From the NCBI GenBank assembly GCA_965208575.1, contig CBDBOV010000006.1, positions 1,024,001 through 1,088,000 of the forward strand: DNA of 64,000 nucleotides. Direction: 5' to 3'. The notes beneath the pieces are model-generated. The model made no database searches. It worked only from the letters and a program-made list of their open reading frames with translations, and had not been told where the DNA came from. Positions 10,806-63,774 of this stretch are shown in pieces (position 1 is the stretch's first letter; each line of letters starts with the position of its first letter). Made by a program: the position numbers and the translations under genes. Source of the DNA: Spirochaetia bacterium. GTDB lineage: Bacteria; Spirochaetota; Spirochaetia; SZUA-6; Bin103.

Positions 10806-12284
10806 TCAGAATTTGCGGGACCAGTCGGCGGGCCAGCGCTCTACCACCACCTTGGTCTGGGTGAAAAACTCCACCGCATGCTTGCCCTGGCCATGCAGCA
10901 CGCCGAAGAAGCTGCTGCGCCAGCCGGAGAACGGGAAGTAGGCCATCGGGGCGGCGACGCCGATGTTGATGCCGATGTTGCCCACGTCGGCGGCGTAGCG
11001 GAACTGGCGCGCGGCGCGCCCGTCGGTCGTGAACAGGCAGGCCATGTTGCCGTAGCGGCCCGAGTTGACCAGCGCGATGGCGTCCTCCACGGTGTCCACC
11101 TGCATCAGCCCGAACACCGGCCCGAATATCTCGGTGGTGGCCACGGTGCTGCCGGGCGGCACGTCGGCGAGCAGCGTGGGGCGCACGAACGAGCCGCCTT
11201 CCAGGCCCGGGACGGTGGCGCCGCGCCCGTCCACCACGACGCGGGCGCCCTCCTGCGCGCCGACCCCGATCAGGTGCTCGATGCGCTGTTTGCTGGCCTG
11301 GCTGATCACCGGCCCCATCTCCACCGACTCGTCCAGGCCGTCGCCGACCACGCGGTCGGCGGCCACCGCCGCCAGCGCCTCGGTGAAGGCATCGCCCGCA
11401 TCGCCCACGGTGATCGCCATGGAGGCGGCGAGGCAGCGCTGGCCGGCGTTGCCGTAGCAGGAGTCGACGGTGATCTGGGTGGCCATGTCGATCTCGGCGT
11501 CGGGCAGCACGACGATCGGGTTCTTGGCGCCGCCCTGCGCCTGCACCCGCTTGCCGGCGGCGGAGGCGCGCGCGTAGACGTGCTCGGCCACGGCGGTGGA
11601 GCCGACGAAGCTGACCGCGTGCACGCCGGGGTGGTCGAGCAGCGCGTTGACCGTGTCGGCGCCGCCGTTGACCACGTTGAACACGCCCGGCGGCAGGCCC
11701 GCCTCCTCCACCAGCCGGGTGACCACCTGCATGGTGATCGGCGTGCGGTCGGCGGGCTTGACGATCACCACGTTGCCGCAGGCCAGCGCGTACGGAAAGA
11801 ACCAGAACGGGATCATGGCCGGGAAGTTGAACGGGCACACGATCGCGCACACCCCCACCGGCTGGCGGATCATCAACTCGTCGATGCCGCGCGAGACATC
11901 CTCCAGTACGTCGCCCTGCATCATGGTGGGGATGCCGCACGCCACCTCGACGTTCTCGATGGCGCGCACCAGCTCGCCCAGCGACTCCGACAGGATCTTG
12001 CCGTTCTCGATGGTGATGGCGCGCCCGATCTCCTGCGTCTCGCGCTCCAGCAGCGCCTTCAGCTTGAACAGGTACTGGATGCGCTCGCCGGGCGGCGTGC
12101 CGCGCCACTCCGGAAAGGCCGCGGCGGCCGCCGCAACGGCGCGGTCCACCTCGGCGCCGGACGACTGCGGCGTGTGTCCTATCGTCTCCCCGGTGGCCGG
12201 ATTCACCACCGCCACGGTCTCGGCCCCGGCAGGCGCGCCCCACGCCCCGCCAACAAAGTTCCTGATCTCATACAAACTAGCCAT
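10806..12284 (-). CDS. mmsA: CoA-acylating methylmalonate-semialdehyde dehydrogenase
   Basis: [45 protein letters not shown]. Confidence 0.92.
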
Positions 12285-12452
12285 GGCTGACAAGTATATC
12301 ACACCCCAAGGGGTCTGAGTACGAGAGCCGTTAGCATGATCGGCACACATGCAAGACGTGCCCTCATCATCCTACCTGCTTCGCAGATCCTGTCTCTCGG
12401 ATCCCAACTTCACCCAGTGCCCGGATTTCATGAAGTGGAAGCTCCATCTTCT

Positions 12453-13865
12453 TCACCGCCAGTCGGAGGGTTCCAAGAGCTCGATCCGCTTGACGGATTC
12501 TATGAAACCGACTTCGGAGAACGGGCCAAGCCACCCAGAATAGTGGTTTACCGTCTGAATCACCCGCGCCGCGTAACTCACTTCCGGATCCTGTTTCGCA
12601 TCCGCTGAATCCACTTCTGGCGCCAAGCCGCGATAGTGTTCCAATAGGGGCGTGCTTTCCGAACTCCAGTGCACCCGACGCCCTTGACTTGAAATCTCTA
12701 CTGCTGCCATCACCACAAGGGCCTCGAATAGTCGTACACCGGAGGAAGCACGGCCCTCCTTCTGCGCCTTCGAGATCCCATAGTGCTCGAATGTTGCCTC
12801 GGTCAATTCAAGATCGGTCACCATCCCATTCACGAATCTTCGATAGATGTTATCGTCCGCCGTCCGAAGGATCACCGCAACCCCCGTAGTCAAGGAAGAG
12901 AGCGGCGTACTATTCGATGACGCTGCAACTAAACCGATCCGGTAGATCATTTGTCCGATCTGCCTCAGACTAACACGGGGAGAGACAAAGAACACCTCTA
13001 GAAGGTCGCAGATATCGCCGGTGACTTTGGCGGTGTTAAACATAGTACGTATAAACGGTTTTCTGTCAGGATCAGGAAGCCGGAAGTCGATGTCGAAGAA
13101 CCGGCGTAGATAGCCGGAGGCATCAAAGTCGTTCCCGTACAAGGCCCTTATCGAATGACTCAGTTGATCGCGATTCACCGCAAGTACGAACACCGTGTGA
13201 TCTACCGCGAACAGATGCTTCGCAACCTCGATCAACTCGACAGCGTACGACGGCCGGCAACGATCCAATTCGTCCACCATCACCACGAGTGGATGGCTAT
13301 CCGGCCTAGTGACCAGTAAGTTCGCCATCTCCTCGAGTCTATTCCTGAATCCCTCGATCGAGTTCTGGGTCTCTGTGTATTGCTTCAATCTGTCCTCGGC
13401 ATAGGACGAAAGGATTTTTCCTGCTTCTTTCTCGATCAACGGCTCGACATCGAGTACGCCGGCGGTAAAGAGCCTGATCACGCCGGGTATGGCTCGAAGA
13501 GCGACTTGCTTCGCAGCCTCCGCCGTGATTCTGATCTTTGCGTCGAGCGACTCGTCTTCGAATCGACGAAGGCCTTCGGTCAGCTCTGTAACGATGGCTA
13601 CAAAGGGGTCGCCGGCGTGATCGGTCTCCCATGCGTTGAACTCGACCACGGGGAATCGTTCGTTGCGCAGGCGCTGAGCCCACATCTTCAGGAACGTCGT
13701 CTTGCCGGCGCCCCATGCGGCGTCTACTGCTAGTACGCAGGGACCCTCGATGCCGTCGATGAGTTGCGTAAGGATCTTCGCAGGCTCACCTCTATTGAGG
13801 AGATCGTTCCTGAAGGGGTCATCCTGGGGTATCTCGATTTCTTCCGGCCTAATTCGTATTCCCAT
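12453..13865 (-). CDS. KAP-family P-loop NTPase (no obvious TM helices)
   Basis: DPFRNDLLNR, WGAGKTT, FNAW, VDELDRCRP, YLRRFFD; lower GC. Confidence 0.9.
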   Translation of the reverse strand: MGIRIRPEEIEIPQDDPFRNDLLNRGEPAKILTQLIDGIEGPCVLAVDAAWGAGKTTFLKMWAQRLRNERFPVVEFNAWETDHAGDPFVAIVTELTEGLRRFEDESLDAKIRITAEAAKQVALRAIPGVIRLFTAGVLDVEPLIEKEAGKILSSYAEDRLKQYTETQNSIEGFRNRLEEMANLLVTRPDSHPLVVMVDELDRCRPSYAVELIEVAKHLFAVDHTVFVLAVNRDQLSHSIRALYGNDFDASGYLRRFFDIDFRLPDPDRKPFIRTMFNTAKVTGDICDLLEVFFVSPRVSLRQIGQMIYRIGLVAASSNSTPLSSLTTGVAVILRTADDNIYRRFVNGMVTDLELTEATFEHYGISKAQKEGRASSGVRLFEALVVMAAVEISSQGRRVHWSSESTPLLEHYRGLAPEVDSADAKQDPEVSYAARVIQTVNHYSGWLGPFSEVGFIESVKRIELLEPSDWR

Positions 13866-54835: not shown

Positions 54836-54883
54836 TTGAAGCTCGCCGAGCGACGAGCGAAGGAGTACTACCGAAGTGTCTGA
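54836..54883 (+). pseudogene. Last ~15 codons of a deleted Gp49/RelE toxin
   Basis: LKLAERRAKEYYRSV*, with its stop overlapping the antitoxin start. Confidence 0.55.
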
Positions 54884-55163
54884 ACAGAACCCTCACCTGG
54901 GATCCACGCTCGAAAGTCTGCTGCGGAAAGACGGCACCTACGAAGATGCCAAGAACGACGCTGTCAAAGCGGTCCTCGCATACAAGCTTCAGCAAGCGAT
55001 GAAAGAACAGAACCTCTCCAAGGCGCGCATGGCCGAACGCATGGAAACCAGCCGCTCACAACTCGACCGCTTGCTGGATCCGGAGAACGAGGGGGTAACA
55101 CTGCATACTCTCAAGCGCGCCGCGGCCGCGGTGGGTATGCGCCTGGAGCTCGAACTCCGCTAG
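54876..55163 (+). CDS. HigA-like XRE antitoxin (orphan)
   Basis: NPHLGS, SKARMAERMETSRSQLDRLLDP.N..VTL.TL.RAA. Confidence 0.88.
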   Translation: MSEQNPHLGSTLESLLRKDGTYEDAKNDAVKAVLAYKLQQAMKEQNLSKARMAERMETSRSQLDRLLDPENEGVTLHTLKRAAAAVGMRLELELR

Positions 55164-55184: not shown

Positions 55185-56153
55185 TCACCGGCTGGCTGGC
55201 AGACTCGCCCGGAGGTCGGTGGAGACGGCGCAGTGGTCCGGGTGGTCATCGTGCCGCGGCCACTCGCGCGTCGATTCCGGGACCAGCAGTGCTGCGGCAG
55301 TGGGGTCGAGCACGATGTGGTCGATGAATTCCTCGAAGTCCGGGTCGCACTGAAACTCGATGTCCGCAGTGAGGAGATCGAGCGGGGACGATTTCGGCGA
55401 CAGCTCTCTCCAGGCCCAGTCGTCGCGGACGGCCAGACGGCGGTTGAAGTCTCCCAGGATGGCGAAGGCGGTCCCCGCGTCCTGCCGGCGGTGGGCCCAG
55501 GATCTGAGTTCGAGAACCTGGTCTCGCAGCGTGGCGCAGGTCTGTGCGCGGGACTCGCTCGCGTCCTGCTCGGCCGACCAGCATCCCGAATTGAGGTGCA
55601 CGGACAGCAGGCGCAGTTGGCGGTCGCCGAGGGCCACCGTGATGTCCGTACCCCAGCGATTGTGCGGGGCCGGGTCGCCGAGGGATGTCAGGTCTTCGTT
55701 GCGCTGGTAGGCGATCTCCTTGCGGATGGCGAACCCGGTCGCCAGTTGGTGGACGTACTTGCCCGGCAGTCCCCAGCACTCGCGCGGCTCGGCTGCCGGT
55801 ACCGGACGCATGGACACTTCCACGCGCCAGTGAGTTGCGGGGAACACCCGCAGCGCCGCGTCCATGTTCTCCACTTCCTGGAACGCCACCACGTCCGGCG
55901 CGATCTCCCGGACACGGTCCGCGATGGCGTCGTAGTCCGCCTGCTCCCTGGGCACGCAGCCGGCGTCGTCGGTGTCGTTCAGATGCTCCAGGTTCCAGGT
56001 GGCGATGCGCAGTTGCACCGCGGCGGGCGGGCCGGGAACCACCCCCGACCCCCGGCAGCCGGCGAGCAGCAGCGGCACGCCGACCAGGACGACCAGCGCG
56101 GTAACAATCGGCCTCCGGTACGCGCTGCGGTCCGGATGCGGGGCATCACTCAT
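55185..56153 (-). CDS. Endonuclease/exonuclease/phosphatase (EEP) family lipoprotein
   Basis: Lipobox LLAGC, IATWNLE, FQEVE, VHLNSGC, GDFNR, IDHI, DHCAV. Confidence 0.88.
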   Translation of the reverse strand: MSDAPHPDRSAYRRPIVTALVVLVGVPLLLAGCRGSGVVPGPPAAVQLRIATWNLEHLNDTDDAGCVPREQADYDAIADRVREIAPDVVAFQEVENMDAALRVFPATHWRVEVSMRPVPAAEPRECWGLPGKYVHQLATGFAIRKEIAYQRNEDLTSLGDPAPHNRWGTDITVALGDRQLRLLSVHLNSGCWSAEQDASESRAQTCATLRDQVLELRSWAHRRQDAGTAFAILGDFNRRLAVRDDWAWRELSPKSSPLDLLTADIEFQCDPDFEEFIDHIVLDPTAAALLVPESTREWPRHDDHPDHCAVSTDLRASLPASR

Positions 56154-57796: not shown

Positions 57797-58919
57797 GTGA
57801 CGAAGGGCCGGTACACGGCGCTGATTGCCGGCTACACCGGCGCGGTGGGCGGCGCCCTGGCGCGCGAGCTGGCCGGCCGCGCCGAGTGGCGGGTCTACGG
57901 CCTGGCCCGGCATCCGCCGGCGGCCGTCGAGCCCGCCGCCACCAGCGAGCCGTCCTGGGACGGGGAACCCGCCGTCACCGGGGTGGAGGGCGTGACCGGG
58001 GTGGCGGCGGACATGGCGGACCGCGACGGGCTGCGGCGGGCGCTGGAGCCACTGGGCGGCGTCACCCACCTGTTCTACTGCGGGCGCGTCACCCACGCCG
58101 AGCAGGTGATCGAGGATGCCGCCGCCAACCTCGCTCTGCTGGACAACGTGGTCACCGCCACCGAGGCGGCCGCCCCGGGGTTGCGCCATGTGCACCTGGT
58201 GCAGGGCGGCAAGTACTACGGCGTGCACGTCGGGCCGTTCCCGACTCCGGCCGAGGAAGCGCAACCGCGCGCGCCGATCGACAACTTCAACTACGACCAG
58301 CAGGACTACCTGAGCACCCGCGCCGCCGCGGCGCGGTGGACCTGGTCGGCGTCGCGGCCCAACACGCTGGTGCACTTCTCGCCGGCGATCGCGCGCAACC
58401 TGGTCAGCACGCTCGGCGCCTGGGCCGCGATCTGCCGCGAGCTGGGCGCCGCGCTGGACTTCCCGGGACCGCCGGCCGCCTATGGCAGCCTCACCCAGCT
58501 CACCACCATCGAGCTGCTGGCGCGCGCCATCGCCTGGATGGCCACCGAGCCGGCGTGCGCCAACGAGGCGTTCAACGTCACCAACACCGACCTGTTCCGC
58601 TGGCACGCGCTGTGGCCGCGGCTGGCGGACGCGTTCGCCATGCCGCTCGGCTGCGTGCGTCCCCTACGGCTGGCCGAGGTGATGGCCGGCCGCGGCGAAC
58701 TGTGGCGGCAGGTGTGCGCGCGCCACGGCCTGGTGCAGCCCGACCTGGACCGGGTCGCCAACTGGGGGCTACGCCGACGCCACCCTGGAGCGCACCTGGG
58801 ACGAGATCCTGAGCCACAACAAGGCACGCCGCCTCGGCTTCCACGACTGGGACGACAGCCCGGCACGCATCTTCACCATCCTCGACCAGTACCGCCAGGC
58901 CCGAATCCTGCCGCACTGA
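57797..58919 (+). pseudogene. PRISE/VEP1-like SDR with a +1 frameshift in a G5 run (58764-58768), or a sequencing error
   Basis: GYTGAVG, QGGKYYG, NFNYDQQD, NEAFNVTN; removing one G restores WGYADATL..WDEILSHNKARRLGF..YRQARILPH*. Confidence 0.8.
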
Positions 58920-58939
58920 GCCACCTGCTCTCGTCGCGG

Positions 58940-60037
58940 CTACTGGCGGTGAAACTCCATCCAATAGTGTCCGTATTGACGGTATTCATTGCCGGCTGTT
59001 TCGTGCCAATACCAGGACACGATCAGCAGGTCGGGGCTGTCGGTCGGGGCGAACGCGATGCGGTCCGCTTTGAATTCTTCGCCGGGTTCCTCCGCCGTTC
59101 CACCCAGCGGCGTCCAGGTCGAACTCGCACCCTGAAAGTCGAGGAAGTAGTTCCCGTCGTCGAGCGTCCACGTGGCCGTGAACCGCTCGGTTCCGTGCGC
59201 CTCTCGCACCTCCCCAATGAACGTCCCGTCCGCTCCGATTGTCATCTCGAAGAGGACCGGACCCTGATCCCACTCATCGGTGGCCTGCCACACGCCGGTC
59301 AACGTTGGTACCGGATTCGGGATCCAATCGTAGCGCTCAAGCCCGACGTCCGCCGGCGTCTCGTGGTCATCCTGCCACTCATGCATGAACAGTACGCTGT
59401 GGTCGTCGCTTCCCCACACGTAGTGCTTCCGGACGCTCATCGAAGAGCCGTCTTCCTCGTCTTCCCACTCTCTTATCACCGTACCCTCGGCCGCTGTCGA
59501 CCATCCGCCGCTTGGATTCCACACGTGGTCAAGGGTTCCGTCAAGAAAGTAGTAGGATCGGGCCAGAACATACCTGCCACTCGTGAATGTAAGGGTGTCG
59601 ACGAAGTGTCCCTGAACCTCGCCGTCATCGTCGTGCCACTCGCGGCCTGGTGTCCTCCAGGTGCTTTGGAGTCCCGGCCTCACGGTGATGGTGAAGACGA
59701 GGGAAGCCTTCTTCGAGCCGGTGGCGTTGGTTGCGGTGTAGGTCACGCTGTGATTGCCGGCCGCGGTCGGGGTGCCGCTCAGCACGCGGGTGGCGGCGTC
59801 GAACGCCAGGCCAGCAGGTATCGGCGCGAGGTTGTAGGTCAAGTCACCCTTGTCACCCGTTGCCTCCGGCAGCGTGACGGGCGACGACGCCACGTCCCTG
59901 GTCATGGGTGGTATGGACAGCGTCAGCTCTTCCGCCGGGAAGTCTACCGGTGTACTCACGGTCGCCTGCTCGCAACCTGGCAGGCACATCACCACCGCGG
60001 CGGCTGCTGCCGGCCACGCGGTGCGTATCGATCTCAT
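58940..60037 (-). CDS. Surface lipoprotein with putative Ig (He_PIG-like) domain and beta-rich C-terminal repeats
   Basis: Lipobox LPGC; LPEATG..G.LTY.L...PAGLAFDAATRVLSGTPT.AG...VTYTAT; in-frame upstream ATG 60169 with AGGAGG. Confidence 0.8.
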   Translation of the reverse strand: MRSIRTAWPAAAAAVVMCLPGCEQATVSTPVDFPAEELTLSIPPMTRDVASSPVTLPEATGDKGDLTYNLAPIPAGLAFDAATRVLSGTPTAAGNHSVTYTATNATGSKKASLVFTITVRPGLQSTWRTPGREWHDDDGEVQGHFVDTLTFTSGRYVLARSYYFLDGTLDHVWNPSGGWSTAAEGTVIREWEDEEDGSSMSVRKHYVWGSDDHSVLFMHEWQDDHETPADVGLERYDWIPNPVPTLTGVWQATDEWDQGPVLFEMTIGADGTFIGEVREAHGTERFTATWTLDDGNYFLDFQGASSTWTPLGGTAEEPGEEFKADRIAFAPTDSPDLLIVSWYWHETAGNEYRQYGHYWMEFHRQ

Positions 60038-60209
60038 GTATTTCACCTTCGGTGTTCTCCTTGTCGTTTGTCGCGTAGTGGTCAGGGCAGGGAGCCCTGC
60101 TTGTCCGAACTTGTCTCGCGCAACGCGCTCCTGGCACGGAGCGGCGCGCCTGCGTTCACGTAGCTGCATGACCTCCTTTACGTGGGACTTCGGTGCTGGT
60201 TCCGGGCGT

Positions 60210-60473
60210 TCATCGGTGTCTGTCGCTCGGGCGGCGCGGCGGGCGTGGGATTTCGGCGGGCCACTCCCCGTCGTCGGGCCAGTGATCGGAGAGATACTGG
60301 AGCGCACGAGCCGCGCGACGGATCGTGATGGTGCGTCCGCGCTCCAGACGGGCGATCGTTTCGCCGCTTCCGGTCGCCAGGCGGGAGACCGTCGACAGCC
60401 GTCGCCGGGTGTGAGTAGCGAAGATCGTACAGAGGCGCGGTAACCACTCCGTCGTCGTGGCCGTGTCGTTCAT
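60210..60473 (-). CDS. Phage Cro-like HTH protein
   Basis: LSTVSRLATGSG.TIARLERG..ITIRRA..ALQYLSDHWP...EWPA.IPRP; divergent from the S24 repressor. Confidence 0.75.
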   Translation of the reverse strand: MNDTATTTEWLPRLCTIFATHTRRRLSTVSRLATGSGETIARLERGRTITIRRAARALQYLSDHWPDDGEWPAEIPRPPRRPSDRHR

Positions 60474-60479
60474 AGCATG

Positions 60480-60508
60480 ATTGTGTCATACATCGCATAT
60501 CCGTGCAA
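60480..60508 (-). promoter_or_regulatory. cro promoter with a degenerate operator
   Basis: - strand TTGCAC-17-CACAAT ending 6 nt before ATG 60473; contains a GTGTCAT half-site (60483-60489). Confidence 0.55.
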
Positions 60509-60598
60509 CCCGTCTGTATTCACCCGTTTTCTTGCCGGGGGGCGCGAGGCTCCGGGACTCCCACCGGTAGCGTTTGGGGCTCGGTGCGGTTTCTGTTA

Positions 60599-60618
60599 TC
60601 GTGTCATTTATGACACGA
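60599..60618. promoter_or_regulatory. Perfect 9-2-9 operator over the repressor start
   Basis: TCGTGTCAT-TT-ATGACACGA; overlaps TG-n-TATCGT -10 box and ATG 60610. Confidence 0.75.
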
Positions 60619-61482
60619 GGCGGCCTGGACCACCTGCGCGCGACCGTAAAGACTCACGTCCAGCGCGAGGGATTGCGTCCGCTCTCCACCCGCACGGGGA
60701 TACCGGTCGGGCAGCTTCGCAGCCTCCTCGACGGGCGAGCAGCGCTGAGCACTACCATTGAGTGCGCTTCGACGGCGTTCGGATTGGAGTTCTACGTCGG
60801 ACCTCCGCGCGAATCCGATTCAGCCGGGCCGGCGGGCAGGGCGGTCGGTACTTCGGACAGCTCTGGCGGCCGCGAGCATCCCCAGTCTGCCGAGGTACCT
60901 GCGGCGGCAACGCCTCCCGCATGGGTGATGAATCTGCGCCGCGACTTGCGCGAGGACGTGGCCACGCTGCTACGGGGGTTCACCAGCGCCGACGCCCGAG
61001 CGTTTCTCGCCACCGGCGCCGCGGCGCGACAACCAGCGCTCACCGGCGTGGCGCCAAGTGCCGACTACGCGAGAGTTCGCATGCTCGACGCAGCCGCCGG
61101 CGGTGAGAGTGGCGGGGAGCTCCTGCTTGAGCAGGCGCGGGTCACCGGCTACCAGGAATTCCCGCGCCGATGGCTGGAGCGCCACGAGATCGATGCCGGT
61201 CGGTGTGCGATTGTCGGCATACGGGGAGACGCCATGGAACCGACGCTGCCGGACGGGTGTTCGATCCTGGTCGACTACACCCGTCGACGCCTGCGTGTCG
61301 GACGCATCTTCGTGGTGCGCTCCGGCGCCGAACTGATGGTGCGGCGGGCGCTCAAGGACCGCGCCGGCCGGTGGCTGTTGGCCGGCGATCATCATCCGCG
61401 CACGCCGCCGGCACCATGGGACCGGCGCGGTTCCGAGGTAGTCGGGGAGGTTCGCTGGATGGCCAACACGTTCGCGGGGTAG
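60610..61482 (+). CDS. CI-like repressor: N-terminal HTH plus S24-like domain with substituted catalytic residues
   Basis: GLRPLSTRTGIPVGQLRSLLDG; AAAGG; IRGDAMEPTLPDG.ILVD; ELMVRR; VVGEVRW. Confidence 0.85.
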   Translation: MTRGGLDHLRATVKTHVQREGLRPLSTRTGIPVGQLRSLLDGRAALSTTIECASTAFGLEFYVGPPRESDSAGPAGRAVGTSDSSGGREHPQSAEVPAAATPPAWVMNLRRDLREDVATLLRGFTSADARAFLATGAAARQPALTGVAPSADYARVRMLDAAAGGESGGELLLEQARVTGYQEFPRRWLERHEIDAGRCAIVGIRGDAMEPTLPDGCSILVDYTRRRLRVGRIFVVRSGAELMVRRALKDRAGRWLLAGDHHPRTPPAPWDRRGSEVVGEVRWMANTFAG

Positions 61483-61620
61483 GACAATCGGAACGCGCGG
61501 CGCCGGGTGCAGCGCAACTGACGCCGACAGACTTGCTGGACGGTGCCGCCGGACAAGGTCGATGATCCTCCGATTCGAGCCTACCGGTAGACGCGGAACG
61601 TGCGCCGGCGCCCGCCAAGT

Positions 61621-61667
61621 GGGCAGGGCTGGGCAAGGCAGGGCAGGGCTGGGCTGGGCAGGGCAGG
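61621..61667 (+). repeat. (GGGCW)n pentamer microsatellite, about 9 units
   Basis: gggcagggctgggcaaggcagggcagggctgggctgggcagggcagg. Confidence 0.85.
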
Positions 61668-61726
61668 TCATGGCCGATGACGAAATACCGCTCCGGTGAT
61701 ACGATAGGGCACGGTGGAGGATGCCC

Positions 61727-62455
61727 ATGAAGAACTCCGCGCTCGCTGCTGCTCAGGTCGGGATTGACTACCCCACTACCGACGGTGAGCCCATGGCGGA
61801 AACCGATGCCCAGGGAATCCCCCTCATGTACGCGGTCACCGGTCTGCGCGACTACTTCCGCCACCGCCCCGACGTGTACGTGTCCGGCAACCTGTTGGTC
61901 TACTACGAAGCGGGCAACCTGGACGCCTCGGTGGCGCCGGACGTGTTCGTGGTGCTTGGAGTCCCGAACCACATGCGGCCGACCTACCGGATCTGGGAGG
62001 AAGGCAAGGGGCCCGACTTCGTGCTGGAGATCACCTCGCGCCACACGCGCGCCAACGACGAGGGTCCGAAGCGGGAACTGTACCAGCGGCTGGGGGTGCA
62101 GGAGTACTGGCGGTACGACCCGACGGGAGACTACCTGGAGCCGCCGTTGCACGGCCTGGAGCTGAGCGATGGAGCGTACCGGCGATTGCGGCCGAACTGG
62201 CTGGCGGACGGCACGCAGGTGATGTACAGCGCGGTGCTGGAGCTGGAGTTGAGGATTGAACGAGATGAACTGCGCTTCCGCGATCCGGTGAGCGGCGAGC
62301 GGGTGCGGACGCTGAGCGAAAGCAACGAAGAGCGGCGACAGGAGGCGGAAGCGCGCCGGCACGCCGAACAGAAGCGGCGACAGGAGGCGGCGGCACGCCG
62401 CGCCGCGGAAGCGCGGGTGGCGGAGCTGGAGGCGTTGCTGAACCGGCGTCGGTAA
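61727..62455 (+). CDS. Uma2 (DUF820) family endonuclease with coiled-coil tail
   Basis: YP.TDGEPMAET, VAPDVFVV, PDFVLEITS, GVQEYWRYDP; RBS GGAGG. Confidence 0.92.
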   Translation: MKNSALAAAQVGIDYPTTDGEPMAETDAQGIPLMYAVTGLRDYFRHRPDVYVSGNLLVYYEAGNLDASVAPDVFVVLGVPNHMRPTYRIWEEGKGPDFVLEITSRHTRANDEGPKRELYQRLGVQEYWRYDPTGDYLEPPLHGLELSDGAYRRLRPNWLADGTQVMYSAVLELELRIERDELRFRDPVSGERVRTLSESNEERRQEAEARRHAEQKRRQEAAARRAAEARVAELEALLNRRR

Positions 62456-62577
62456 CGCCGGCCTGATGATCGGCTTTACGCCGAACTCCGGCCCCGTGAG
62501 CGATTTCAGCCGTCCCGGAAGTTTGGCTCTTGACGCGGCAAGTCCGGGTCCCGTGCCCGCGGCCCGGGTGACGCTCC

Positions 62578-63774
62578 TCAGGCGTCCCTGTAGTTCAGCT
62601 CTCGCTGCGCGGTTACCTTCGACTCGTCGATGGCGAAGCCGAGGCCGGGGGCGTCGGGGACGGTGATGGTGCCGGCGACCGGGTGCAGCGGATCGGCCAG
62701 GAAGAACTGGTGGACGATGTTCCACTTGACCAGGTATTCCTGGATCGGGCAGGTGGGGGGCGGCTGGGCGGCGATCAGGTGGGCGGTGGCGTGCGTGCTG
62801 TGGTTGTGCGGGATCACCGGCAGGTCGAAGGTGGAAGCGAGCGCGCAGATCTTGACGGTCTCGCTGATGCCGCCGCACCAGCAGATATCGGGTTGCAGCA
62901 CGTCCATGGCGCGGTTCTCGACAATCGCCCGGAACCCCCAGCGGGTGTACTCGTGCTCCCCGCCGGCGATGGCAATCGGGGAGCTGGCGCGAATCTCCAG
63001 GTAGCTGTCCAGCTTGTCGGCCAGAACCGGCTCCTCCAGCCAGCGGATGCCGTACTCGGCCAGCTCGCCCGCCAGGCGGATCGCGTAGGGCACGTCCCAG
63101 GAACTCCACGCATCCAGCATGAGGTCGACGTCCTCGCCCACCGCCTGCCTGAGCGCGGCGGCCAGCGCCAGGTTGCGGCGCACGCCGTCTGGGCCGTCGG
63201 CGGGGCCGTCGCGGAAGAACCACTTGGTGGCGGTGTAGCCCTCCGCCGCGAACCCGGCGGCGCGCCGGGCGGCTGCTTCCGGCTCGATCGAAAATCCCAG
63301 CGCGCTGGCGTAGGCCGGGAAGCTGGTACGGGTCGGCCCGCCGAGCAGCCGGTACACCGGCTGCCCGAGCGCCTTGCCCTTCAGGTCCCACAGGCCGCAG
63401 TCCACGACGCTGATCGCCATCATCGGCTCACCCTTGCGGCCGTGGATCGTCGACCGGTACATCAGGTCCCACAGCAGCTCGATGGCGAGCGGGTCGCGCC
63501 CGATCAGGAGCGGGCGCAGCGCGGTGTCGATGATGAACGCCTCGATCCGGCTGCATGGCCCGGACAGGCCCACGATGCCGTCGTCGGTGTGGATCTCCAG
63601 GAACACGGCCCGCAGATCGTAGCGTCCGTCGCCGACACCGGGCATGAGGTTGGCGCCGCGGCGGCGAAACTCGGGGTACACGTCCAACGGCATGATCAGC
63701 CGCTCCTCCCAGAACGGCTCCGGATGCTCCAGCACGCCGCACAACTCGCGCAGCTTCAGGTCGACGATCTTCAC
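62578..63774 (-). CDS. Enolase-superfamily acid-sugar dehydratase (L-rhamnonate dehydratase-like)
   Basis: DCGLWDLKGK, TKWF, LDAW, WLEEP, GEHEYTRWGF, QPD, PGLG. Confidence 0.9.
   Translation of the reverse strand: MKIVDLKLRELCGVLEHPEPFWEERLIMPLDVYPEFRRRGANLMPGVGDGRYDLRAVFLEIHTDDGIVGLSGPCSRIEAFIIDTALRPLLIGRDPLAIELLWDLMYRSTIHGRKGEPMMAISVVDCGLWDLKGKALGQPVYRLLGGPTRTSFPAYASALGFSIEPEAAARRAAGFAAEGYTATKWFFRDGPADGPDGVRRNLALAAALRQAVGEDVDLMLDAWSSWDVPYAIRLAGELAEYGIRWLEEPVLADKLDSYLEIRASSPIAIAGGEHEYTRWGFRAIVENRAMDVLQPDICWCGGISETVKICALASTFDLPVIPHNHSTHATAHLIAAQPPPTCPIQEYLVKWNIVHQFFLADPLHPVAGTITVPDAPGLGFAIDESKVTAQRELNYRDA

Follow-up and report, generated by a model that had tools for sequence, protein, structure and literature searches.

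A probable Mu-like phage immunity module whose repressor lacks the S24 catalytic dyad, beside a lipoprotein gene of a Spirochaetia bacterium

What becomes of a phage lysis-lysogeny switch when the phage is gone and the repressor can no longer cleave itself? The question is raised by a stretch of 64,000 nucleotides from a Spirochaetia bacterium (G000:C6:1024001-1088000, G000 being the source genome of 6.5 Mb; the whole stretch is called the window below). It holds a small gene for a Cro-like protein and a divergent gene for a helix-turn-helix (HTH) repressor with an S24 peptidase domain, here called Rep*, with a spacer of 136 bp between them. The initial annotation of the window had placed both genes exactly there and had read them as a domesticated phage CI/Cro switch with a dead autoprotease, wired to a surface lipoprotein with an immunoglobulin (Ig)-like domain. 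Our analysis makes it fairly probable that the pair is a chromosomally fixed Mu-like phage immunity module (c plus a Ner/Cro-like protein) that has lost its phage and is now a local two-regulator cassette. The regulation it would exert, its bistability, the adhesin function of its output and the association of the bacterium with a host are all steps that we infer.

The S24 domain of Rep* and its lost catalytic dyad

The C-terminal part of Rep* matches Peptidase_S24 (Pfam PF00717, residues 171-271) with an E-value of 3.4e-10 and 40.1 bits, the cut-off being 23.3, and in PHROGs the protein matches phrog_4, 'transcriptional repressor' (E 1.2e-14). A predicted N-terminal HTH region (residues ~16-60) ending in GLEFYVGPPR is followed by a variable linker with a conserved helix at ~100-125 and by the S24 region at ~156-290. 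When Rep* was compared with LexA by phmmer (8b0v, E 0.008), its GDAM stood opposite G-x-S-M and its VRR opposite VKR, in agreement with the earlier reading of an alanine codon (GCC, 61231) and an arginine codon (CGG, 61342) at the catalytic positions. A word-seeded search found 225 relatives of Rep*, the best 120 of which were aligned with the query. Ser and Lys occur together in 106 of these 121 sequences and Ala and Arg together in 13, two are gapped, and no row among the 121 has only the Ser or only the Lys replaced. A quick maximum-likelihood tree of the S24 part joins 12 of the 13 Ala/Arg sequences in one clade (SH-aLRT 100) on a long stem of 0.5, and all 12 members share both residues even where identity falls to about 49%; the thirteenth, P0018, sits on a very long branch that this quick tree placed outside the clade.

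Selection was followed through pairwise ratios of nonsynonymous to synonymous substitution (dN/dS) between the window genes and their orthologs in G006, G005 (two copies) and G014. The S24 part of Rep* gave 0.196-0.248 at dS 0.30-1.11, the N-terminal 66 residues 0.08-0.31 and the linker 0.31-0.71. Because of the first of these ranges we regard the Ala/Arg domain as conserved and not decaying. Judged by its alignments, the S24 domain of Rep* is without both catalytic residues, predicted to be dead as a protease and kept under purifying selection, which bears out the autoprotease part of the initial annotation as well as the dN/dS check that it had proposed. A neutrally decaying prophage remnant in which the catalytic changes are damage would account for an origin in a phage module, for GC content at third codon positions (GC3) below that of the neighbours, for a decaying Ala-Gly site and for one copy in the sister genus that is cut to 77 aa beside a degraded operator. 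It is hardly credible in view of dN/dS of 0.07-0.35 for all three genes (Rep*, Cro-like and lipoprotein) at dS up to ~1.1, intact frames in five loci, Ala and Arg shared by the whole clade, and a conserved operator core.

Self-cleaving S24 peptidases are cut at an Ala-Gly or Cys-Gly some 35-45 residues ahead of the Ser, in a reaction stimulated by RecA or high pH, and an Ala-Gly site in Rep* had also been noticed in the initial annotation. Rep* reads AAAGG at this site, yet close relatives already depart from it, P0002 with VTVGG and P0003 with IAADG, and five more distant clade members have other residues there. The Ser/Lys relatives shown mostly have an AAAGG-type site, and P0040 (PAGGAG) and P0064 (ASAGAG) each still have Ala-Gly. 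These observations bear on whether Rep* might be cut in trans at the retained site by an active S24 protein or another protease. The AAAGG of Rep* and the presence of other S24 genes in the genome would allow it; we consider it very improbable given the loss of Ala-Gly in P0002, P0003 and the five distant members, and given a paralog in the same genome that is itself without the Lys.

The HTH of Rep* is assigned through a homolog. Pfam gave no direct HTH_3 match to the N-terminus, and a profile search of PDB sequences returned no HTH, its one match being MreC (E 0.2). In the homolog P0048, Pfam recognises HTH_3 over residues 39-85 (E 9.8e-6), and BLASTP aligns residues 31-90 of P0048 with residues 8-65 of Rep*, from which we infer the N-terminal domain. 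The database gene call for the repressor, P0004 (184 aa), begins at Met107 and so leaves out positions 60610-60927 and with them the HTH; the longer model of 290 aa is favoured because residues 1-66 have low dN/dS. A 90% identical relative, P0005, has the same short gene call without the HTH. A pattern scan of genome contigs with Rep* gave 56 matches, none of which was confirmed by tblastn.

Putative operators and the divergent Cro-like gene

A perfect palindrome with arms of 9 nt around a centre of 2 nt (O1; coordinates of this and the other features are collected in Table 1) lies over the start codon of the repressor, as the initial annotation had reported. It is the sole match in the 64-kb window at ≤3 mismatches (0.02 expected), and a relaxed form of the pattern has no other match in the 6.5-Mb genome at ≤1 mismatch. 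When every 20-mer of the window was scored against this palindrome, 14 reached at least 12/18, namely one at 18/18, two at 13/18 and eleven at 12/18. The degenerate copy that had been described in the cro promoter is real and corresponds to O2, and a third site, O3, was added by the scoring; O1, O2 and O3 all lie within 160 bp. Related candidate operators thus appear over both promoters, as they would in an immunity module.

Conservation of these sites was examined by aligning 15 intergenic regions of related loci. The core CGTGT-N8-ACACG at the repressor start is exact in 12 of the 15, has one mismatch in G014 and is lost in two, one of them beside the 77-aa truncated repressor and the other at a cro-less locus of G020. 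At the O3 position relatives have TCGTGTCAT, overlapping codons 2-4 of the cro-like gene, and at the O2 position an adjacent conserved block, GTG...AT...TAGCACGG; beyond both blocks a GTCAAC block reads TTGAC on the cro strand. Neither the cro-like gene nor the repressor gene has a Shine-Dalgarno stretch before its start. A putative -10 hexamer before the repressor, TATCGT, is kept in 13/15 aligned loci, with TAACGT in G014, TATTGT in the second G013 locus and a gapped row for the cro-less G020 locus. On the minus strand the cro-like gene shows TTGCAC, 17 nt, CACAAT, 6 nt and ATG, an arrangement below the threshold of the promoter scan. The leaderless appearance noted for both genes would fit these features.

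The product of the cro-like gene matches phrog_7669, a phage protein family without an assigned function, at E 3.9e-22 (its residues 3-83 on positions 4-84 of a profile of length 105), and has a conserved Trp/Pro-rich tail, SDHWPxDxxWPxxIPRP. It is 83-95% identical across two genera, with dN/dS of 0.07-0.19. An AF2 model built with 19 sequences has four helices (mean predicted local distance difference test score, pLDDT, 78.5), and the best Foldseek rows are nearly all XRE-type HTH proteins (HipB, DdrO, ClgR, SinR, P22 C2, 434 repressor) at a root-mean-square deviation of 2-3 A over ~52 residues. This model suggests, with moderate confidence, an XRE-like HTH; Pfam matched no HTH family in the protein, its sole match being DUF982 at E 0.03, below the cut-off. 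The family is large, since a HMMER profile scan found 1,783 representatives (50% clustering) at E ≤0.001 and 634 at ≤1e-10. Many members are ~200-235 aa long (P0190, P0191, P0180, P0212, P0238) and have a second HTH-like stretch, …GRIASPxALCLALGVSRxxYDYVxKHY…AGDxRF; Pfam gave no match above cut-off in 10 such long members. In the protein atlas the Cro-like protein fell among unnamed clusters, two of the top three being 50-63% viral, and the names HTH_Tnp_1 (0.76) and HTH_35 (0.75) were rejected as too weak.

The protein could also be a partner of Rep*, an anti-repressor or adaptor acting perhaps through the inactive S24 domain, and not bind DNA at all. Its want of a Pfam HTH match, the weak fold evidence, the invariant tail WPxDxxWPxxIPRP, which is unusual for Cro proteins, and the fusion of a paralogous Cro-like domain to a leucine-rich repeat (LRR) protein are in keeping with such a role. 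We judge it improbable, however, because an XRE HTH agrees with both the sequence pattern and the four-helix model, with HipB, DdrO, ClgR, SinR, P22 C2 and C-proteins as best fold hits; because a phage homolog stands in the ner/cro position and long forms of the family have the second HTH-like stretch; and because the Cro-like protein is kept where its partner has no S24 domain.

Taking the Cro-like protein as a DNA binder, the cassette would work as follows. A dimer of Rep* on O1 would repress its own gene, and Rep* on O2 and O3 would also repress the cro-like gene, whose leaderless transcript would continue into the lipoprotein gene. For its part, the Cro-like protein would bind the same half-sites with a different preference and shut off rep*. 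From this mutual repression a locus with two self-reinforcing states may be expected. Since Rep* is predicted not to self-cleave, we propose that the switch has ceased to respond to RecA and DNA damage and would be thrown by noise, by dilution or by an unknown signal; its output would be a surface-exposed Ig-domain lipoprotein.

Table 1. Positions of the described features within the window
Feature	Position	Strand	Basis or remark
Accessory island, 3.66 kb, with lipoprotein, cro-like, repressor and Uma2 genes	58926-62584		blastn comparison with the corresponding site of relatives
Lipoprotein with one He_PIG Ig-like domain	58940-60046	-	start GTG 60046 or ATG 60037
Cro-lipoprotein spacer with conserved AAAGGAGG-TC-ATG (ATG 60167-60169)	60047-60209	-	alignment with G006
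Cro-like gene	60210-60473	-	open reading frame (ORF) of 87 aa
O3, putative degenerate operator CCGTGTCGT-TC-ATAGCATGA over the cro-like start codon	60461-60480		13/18 against O1
O2, putative degenerate operator TTGTGTCAT-AC-ATCGCATAT in the putative cro promoter	60481-60500		12/18 against O1; abuts O3
Putative -10 hexamer TATCGT, 7 nt upstream of the repressor start codon	60597-60602	+	kept in 13/15 aligned loci
O1, putative operator TCGTGTCAT-TT-ATGACACGA, perfect 9-2-9 palindrome over the repressor start codon	60599-60618		18/18
HTH-S24 repressor (Rep*) gene	60610-61482	+	ORF of 290 aa
Ala208 codon GCC, position of the S24 nucleophile Ser	61231-61233	+	alignment with LexA and homologs
Arg245 codon CGG, position of the S24 general-base Lys	61342-61344	+	alignment with LexA and homologs
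Uma2-family putative endonuclease	61721-62455	+	Pfam PF05685, E 5.3e-18

Probable phage ancestry, relatives and neighbouring genes

A tblastn search of 50,697 phage records with the Cro-like protein hit a single phage, in two records, Rhodovulum phage vB_RhkS_P1. Its Rhks_03 (86 aa, hypothetical) is 53% identical over 55 aa (E 2e-16), tail included, and the divergent Rhks_02 has PF00717 (E 1.7e-15), GDSM and LEFYFGPPR; a transposase ('mobile element protein') is encoded 3 kb from the pair. The accessible text of PMC8541194 counts vB_RhkS_P1 among mitomycin-induced Mu-like phages with HTH + S24 c repressors. In IMG/VR, relatives of the Cro-like protein were found on 66 viral contigs or loci, many of them a few kb from a contig end. 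A divergent S24 ORF stands immediately upstream in 30 of the 66, and among the 31 S24 ORFs seen in all, 29 combine Ser and Lys with an A-G motif, one is a fragment and the remaining one, L094, carries Ala in place of the Ser. Phages too may therefore have non-cleavable versions. The L094 ORF (L094:2466-3134 (-)) is a weak match, E 1.7e-6, and reads D-D-A-M with no evident Ala-Gly site. The Mu transposase domain PF02914 lies near the pair in 3/5 viral records tested, the two without it being fragments rated 42% complete. The two divergent regulators of the window are thus homologous, as a pair, to a phage pair, which supports the phage origin given in the initial annotation; by the vB_RhkS_P1 pair, the IMG/VR loci and the phrog_7669 match, the nearest phage model is Mu-type c/ner and not lambda.

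The pair lies on an accessory island flanked by a PRISE/SDR gene and an MR/MLE gene, each with its 3' end towards the island. In the sister species G007, blastn homology stops at 58925 and restarts at 62585 with 23 bp between, and in the same searches the orthologous site was 282 bp between the flanking SDR and MR/MLE genes in G001 and 3.3 kb of unrelated DNA and genes in G003. The segment is accordingly polymorphic among these genomes, by insertion or by deletion. Its lipoprotein, cro-like and repressor genes have a GC3 of 0.77-0.78 and Uma2 one of 0.85, against 0.88-0.94 in the genes on either side, and inspection by eye showed no direct repeats at the island ends. An immunity module normally resides in a prophage; this island contains only lipoprotein, cro-like, rep* and Uma2 genes. 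By Pfam the neighbours are an SDR (PRISE), two MR/MLE enolases, the Uma2 gene and an exo/endonuclease-phosphatase lipoprotein, and PF02914 was not found in G000, nor in any of the five module-bearing genomes examined, so that the statement in the initial annotation that no integrase, replication or structural phage genes flank the pair is upheld.

Among 41 related genomes, both regulators were found in one bacterial family only. Relatives of Rep* occur in 18/41 related genomes, which without G000 makes 17/23 in its own family and 0/17 in seven other families of the order; the Cro-like protein occurs in 15/41, only in its own family (14/23). G005 has two copies of the module, 97% identical, and G014 has one, all Ala/Arg, and frames are intact in five full-length loci from four genomes and two genera. 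G006 keeps the order lipoprotein-cro-repressor with an extra IS3-type transposase and a duplicated Uma2. The transposase (IS3 family, rve E 2.1e-25) sits between repressor and Uma2; transposase and Uma2 duplicates are found at L016:9471-10751 (-) and 10815-12505.

In the sister genus the S24 domain itself is absent. Twelve hits in seven genomes cover only residues 1 to ~130 of Rep*, and nine repressors of 141-142 aa in six genomes consist of HTH, linker and conserved helix; one further repressor is truncated at 77 aa, with a degraded operator. A complex prediction with two copies of the 142-aa short repressor gave no verdict (score 0.24, mark 0.42). A third route is seen in a paralog of Rep* in G000 (39% identity; L027:7644-8420 (-)), which keeps G-E-S-M and has Ala at the Lys position; its orthologs have Asn in G007 and Arg in G022 at that position (3/3 species read; L012, L007). 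Within this bacterial family the dyad has thus been lost a second time, and independently. Elsewhere in G000 (L026, G000:C2:406000-422000) tblastn found two S24 matches of 42-46% identity, each with an in-frame TGA; the region was taken for the remains of a prophage solely on the translations of unannotated ORFs, and L026 gave no match to the Cro-like protein.

Next to the paralog, and beyond the window at ~198.5 kb of G000:C6 (L027:8511-9788), a paralog of the Cro-like domain (36-39% identity) continues in frame into an LRR protein. The fusion has 425 aa, an LRRNT_2-like start and no signal peptide, and it is kept in G007 over a single alignment of 424 residues. Open frames of 462 and 436 aa stand at the homologous Cro-like hit in G001 and in a second contig of G006, the LRR part being unaligned.

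The gene downstream of cro in the window codes for a lipoprotein with He_PIG at residues 54-119 (Pfam E 4e-11). Its N-terminus, MRSIRTAWPAAAAAVVMCLPGC, has a lipobox-like LPGC; read directly, the lipobox is ...AAAAVVMCLPGC in the window and LGGC, LTGC, LAGC, LAAC and LVGC in five relatives. A putative signal peptide ending in a lipobox cysteine, the mark of a bacterial lipoprotein, is thus seen. GTG 60046 is the likelier start because G006 has ATA for the ATG and keeps the GTG three codons upstream. The gene has dN/dS of 0.165 against G006. In the AF2 model (mean pLDDT 57.1) the Ig domain alone is confident, and the C-terminal part is all-beta; the protein atlas gave He_PIG-type hypothetical clusters only.

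The spacer between cro and lipoprotein is conserved. Its alignment with G006 (window 60030-60215, 189 columns, gene ends included) has 92% mean column identity, the full-length identities to G006 being 88% for the lipoprotein gene and 94% for the cro-like gene. The AGGAGG-ATG at 60169 that had been read as running into the lipoprotein is in frame with it in the window, but two 1-nt indels and one 3-nt indel break this frame in the G006 ortholog, and it is therefore probably not a real N-terminal extension. RNA folding of the spacer was not significant (z 0.30), a two-sequence consensus fold showed no covariation, and Rfam at E up to 1 had 0 matches over 58500-62800.

The association with surface-protein genes that the initial annotation had proposed was followed through the relatives. 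A He_PIG lipoprotein lies downstream of cro in both G000 and G006, and in four sister-genus genomes a lipoprotein homolog (34-37% identity) is divergent from a second, short repressor. Between these two, cro is a probable remnant (best tblastn piece 26 aa, 50%, E 0.29), with its start codon mutated in 3/4 of the loci, and the O2/O3-like and -35-like blocks are kept upstream of the lipoprotein homolog. In G023 two ORFs with CARDB repeats (799 and 991 aa) come after cro, the 799-aa one with a lipobox-like LASC near its N-terminus; in G020 the genes opposite a short repressor code for CARDB proteins (358 and 1617 aa). The lipoprotein link is thus supported for the window, and a link to surface-protein genes (He_PIG, CARDB, LRR) recurs among these loci without being universal.

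The same loci bear on whether the pair needs any memory. It could be an ordinary local regulator pair in which Rep* is an autoregulated repressor and the Cro-like protein fine-tunes or activates the lipoprotein gene in a graded manner. We would not expect this, although it keeps appreciable weight: the sister genus works with a 142-aa repressor without S24 and, where the lipoprotein gene is concerned, seems to have no intact cro in cis, and O2 and O3 are weak sites of 12-13/18. Against it stand the sequence conservation of the Cro-like gene, the best conserved part of the module by the identity and dN/dS given above, its retention elsewhere in the same sister-genus genomes, and operators on both starts, which form a mutual-repression layout.

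Several results weigh against a domesticated switch over a surface protein. The consensus promoter scan of 58800-61800 returned 0 sigma-70-like sites, so that leaderless starts can be suggested but not more, and a search of sequencing runs for RNA data on the stretch found none. An alignment profile of the Cro-like protein had 0 matches among PDB sequences, the Foldseek E-values of the XRE rows are just 0.8-4 and hence weak, and the VIA-align Z of ≤6.0 (Stl, controller proteins, Aca proteins) is in a range common for small helical models. The Cro-LRR fusion fits poorly with a plain DNA-binding Cro, and the conserved spacer before the lipoprotein gene could contain a separate promoter. The four sister-genus lipoprotein loci count as one event because of their shared synteny. 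Finally, the module is not always tied to surface proteins, since G005a has a LuxR-type gene after cro, G005b a cro fragment followed by mnmG, and G014 an unknown 305-aa ORF and an Hsp70/actin-like ORF beside the pair. A wider proposal, doubtful as it stands, is that the module is one of a family of heritable ON/OFF switches which this bacterial lineage took over from a Mu-like phage and employs to vary its cell surface and eukaryote-like proteins (He_PIG, CARDB, LRR), with several copies per genome, private operators and a dead S24 domain kept for oligomerisation or for sensing something other than DNA damage.

Other features of the region touch the pair less closely. Uma2 is present as a tandem duplicate in G006 and was not seen beside the pair in other loci; it is probably a co-resident of the island and not part of the switch, and a toxin-antitoxin or defence role through Uma2 was dropped because it does not travel with the pair elsewhere. 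A run of GGCAGGG / GGCTGGG units lies at 61620-61670, between the repressor stop and Uma2. A small XRE protein is encoded at 54876-55163 (+) (HTH_26 E 2.1e-7, HTH_37 E 8.7e-7), adjoining the exo/endonuclease-phosphatase gene at 55185-56153 (-), whose product begins with a lipobox-like LLLAGC. Most of the stretch is contained in four sequencing runs of one study; other runs hold small shares of it (0.05-0.17), some labelled sponge metagenome, which is no evidence of habitat.

Comparison with known systems

Domesticated phage repressors and non-cleavable LexA-like proteins are already known kinds. A narrow literature search, which is not proof of absence, found no description of a chromosomally fixed Mu-type c/ner pair with an Ala/Arg dyad, of an S24 domain lost in parallel by a sister lineage, or of what phrog_7669 does. 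The locus may offer a clean natural example of how a host can put a phage lysis-lysogeny switch to new use after its trigger has been removed. Self-cleavage appears to have been lost three ways in this lineage, by Ser->Ala plus Lys->Arg in the clade of Rep*, by deletion of S24 in the sister genus and by change of the Lys alone in the paralog, while the DNA-binding parts and operators stayed under strong selection despite these losses. A likely role, that of a regulator in the Ner/Cro position, could also be assigned to phrog_7669, a large unannotated family. If surface and eukaryote-like proteins are indeed controlled in this way, the module would provide a mechanism, open to experimental test, by which the cells of uncultured bacteria could vary one from another.

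The CI/Cro pair of phage lambda is a bistable switch of two divergent HTH regulators that flank several related operators, the larger regulator ending in an S24 domain. The window pair shares the divergent arrangement, related putative operators between the genes and the S24 domain on the larger protein. It differs in having no close sequence relation to lambda (the best phage S24 matches, ~29-30%, are CI-like or c repressors of Pseudomonas phages), in operators that are split between two starts ~120 bp apart and do not form one tripartite OR, and in a repressor for which RecA-dependent cleavage is predicted not to be possible. SinR/SinI of Bacillus subtilis is a switch over surface and matrix genes built on a phage-repressor-like HTH, with an antagonist that acts by protein binding; in sequence it is unrelated to the window pair, and it has no S24 domain.

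The pair of vB_RhkS_P1 is much closer. Both genes are homologous and divergent, the phage repressor has LEFY-GPPR followed by S24, and the small gene has the tail WPDDxEWPAxIPRP; here too the start is near a -10-like hexamer. In contrast to the Ala/Arg copy in the window, the phage repressor keeps GDSM; the phage pair stands beside transposase and ParB-like genes, whereas the window pair is without phage genes and has the lipoprotein downstream; and the phage palindrome, ATAATGGCC-N6-GGCCATTAT, is unlike O1. The phage is also listed as mitomycin-inducible in the accessible text of PMC8541194. Among bacterial regulators, the LexA-related sll1626 of Synechocystis has, according to the accessible part of PMC1524924, neither the nucleophilic Ser nor the Ala-Gly site, and the genes that it regulates are non-SOS genes. 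As a natural S24-family repressor without the Ser it resembles Rep*; as described there, it differs in being a LexA ortholog with unlinked targets and no Cro-like partner, not derived from a phage module. PrlP of Streptococcus suis, as far as PMC12273997 was accessible, is a chromosomal HTH + S24 repressor of host traits that self-cleaves at Ala155-Gly156 under stress. In this respect the two part ways, since PrlP still self-cleaves and Rep* is without the dyad.

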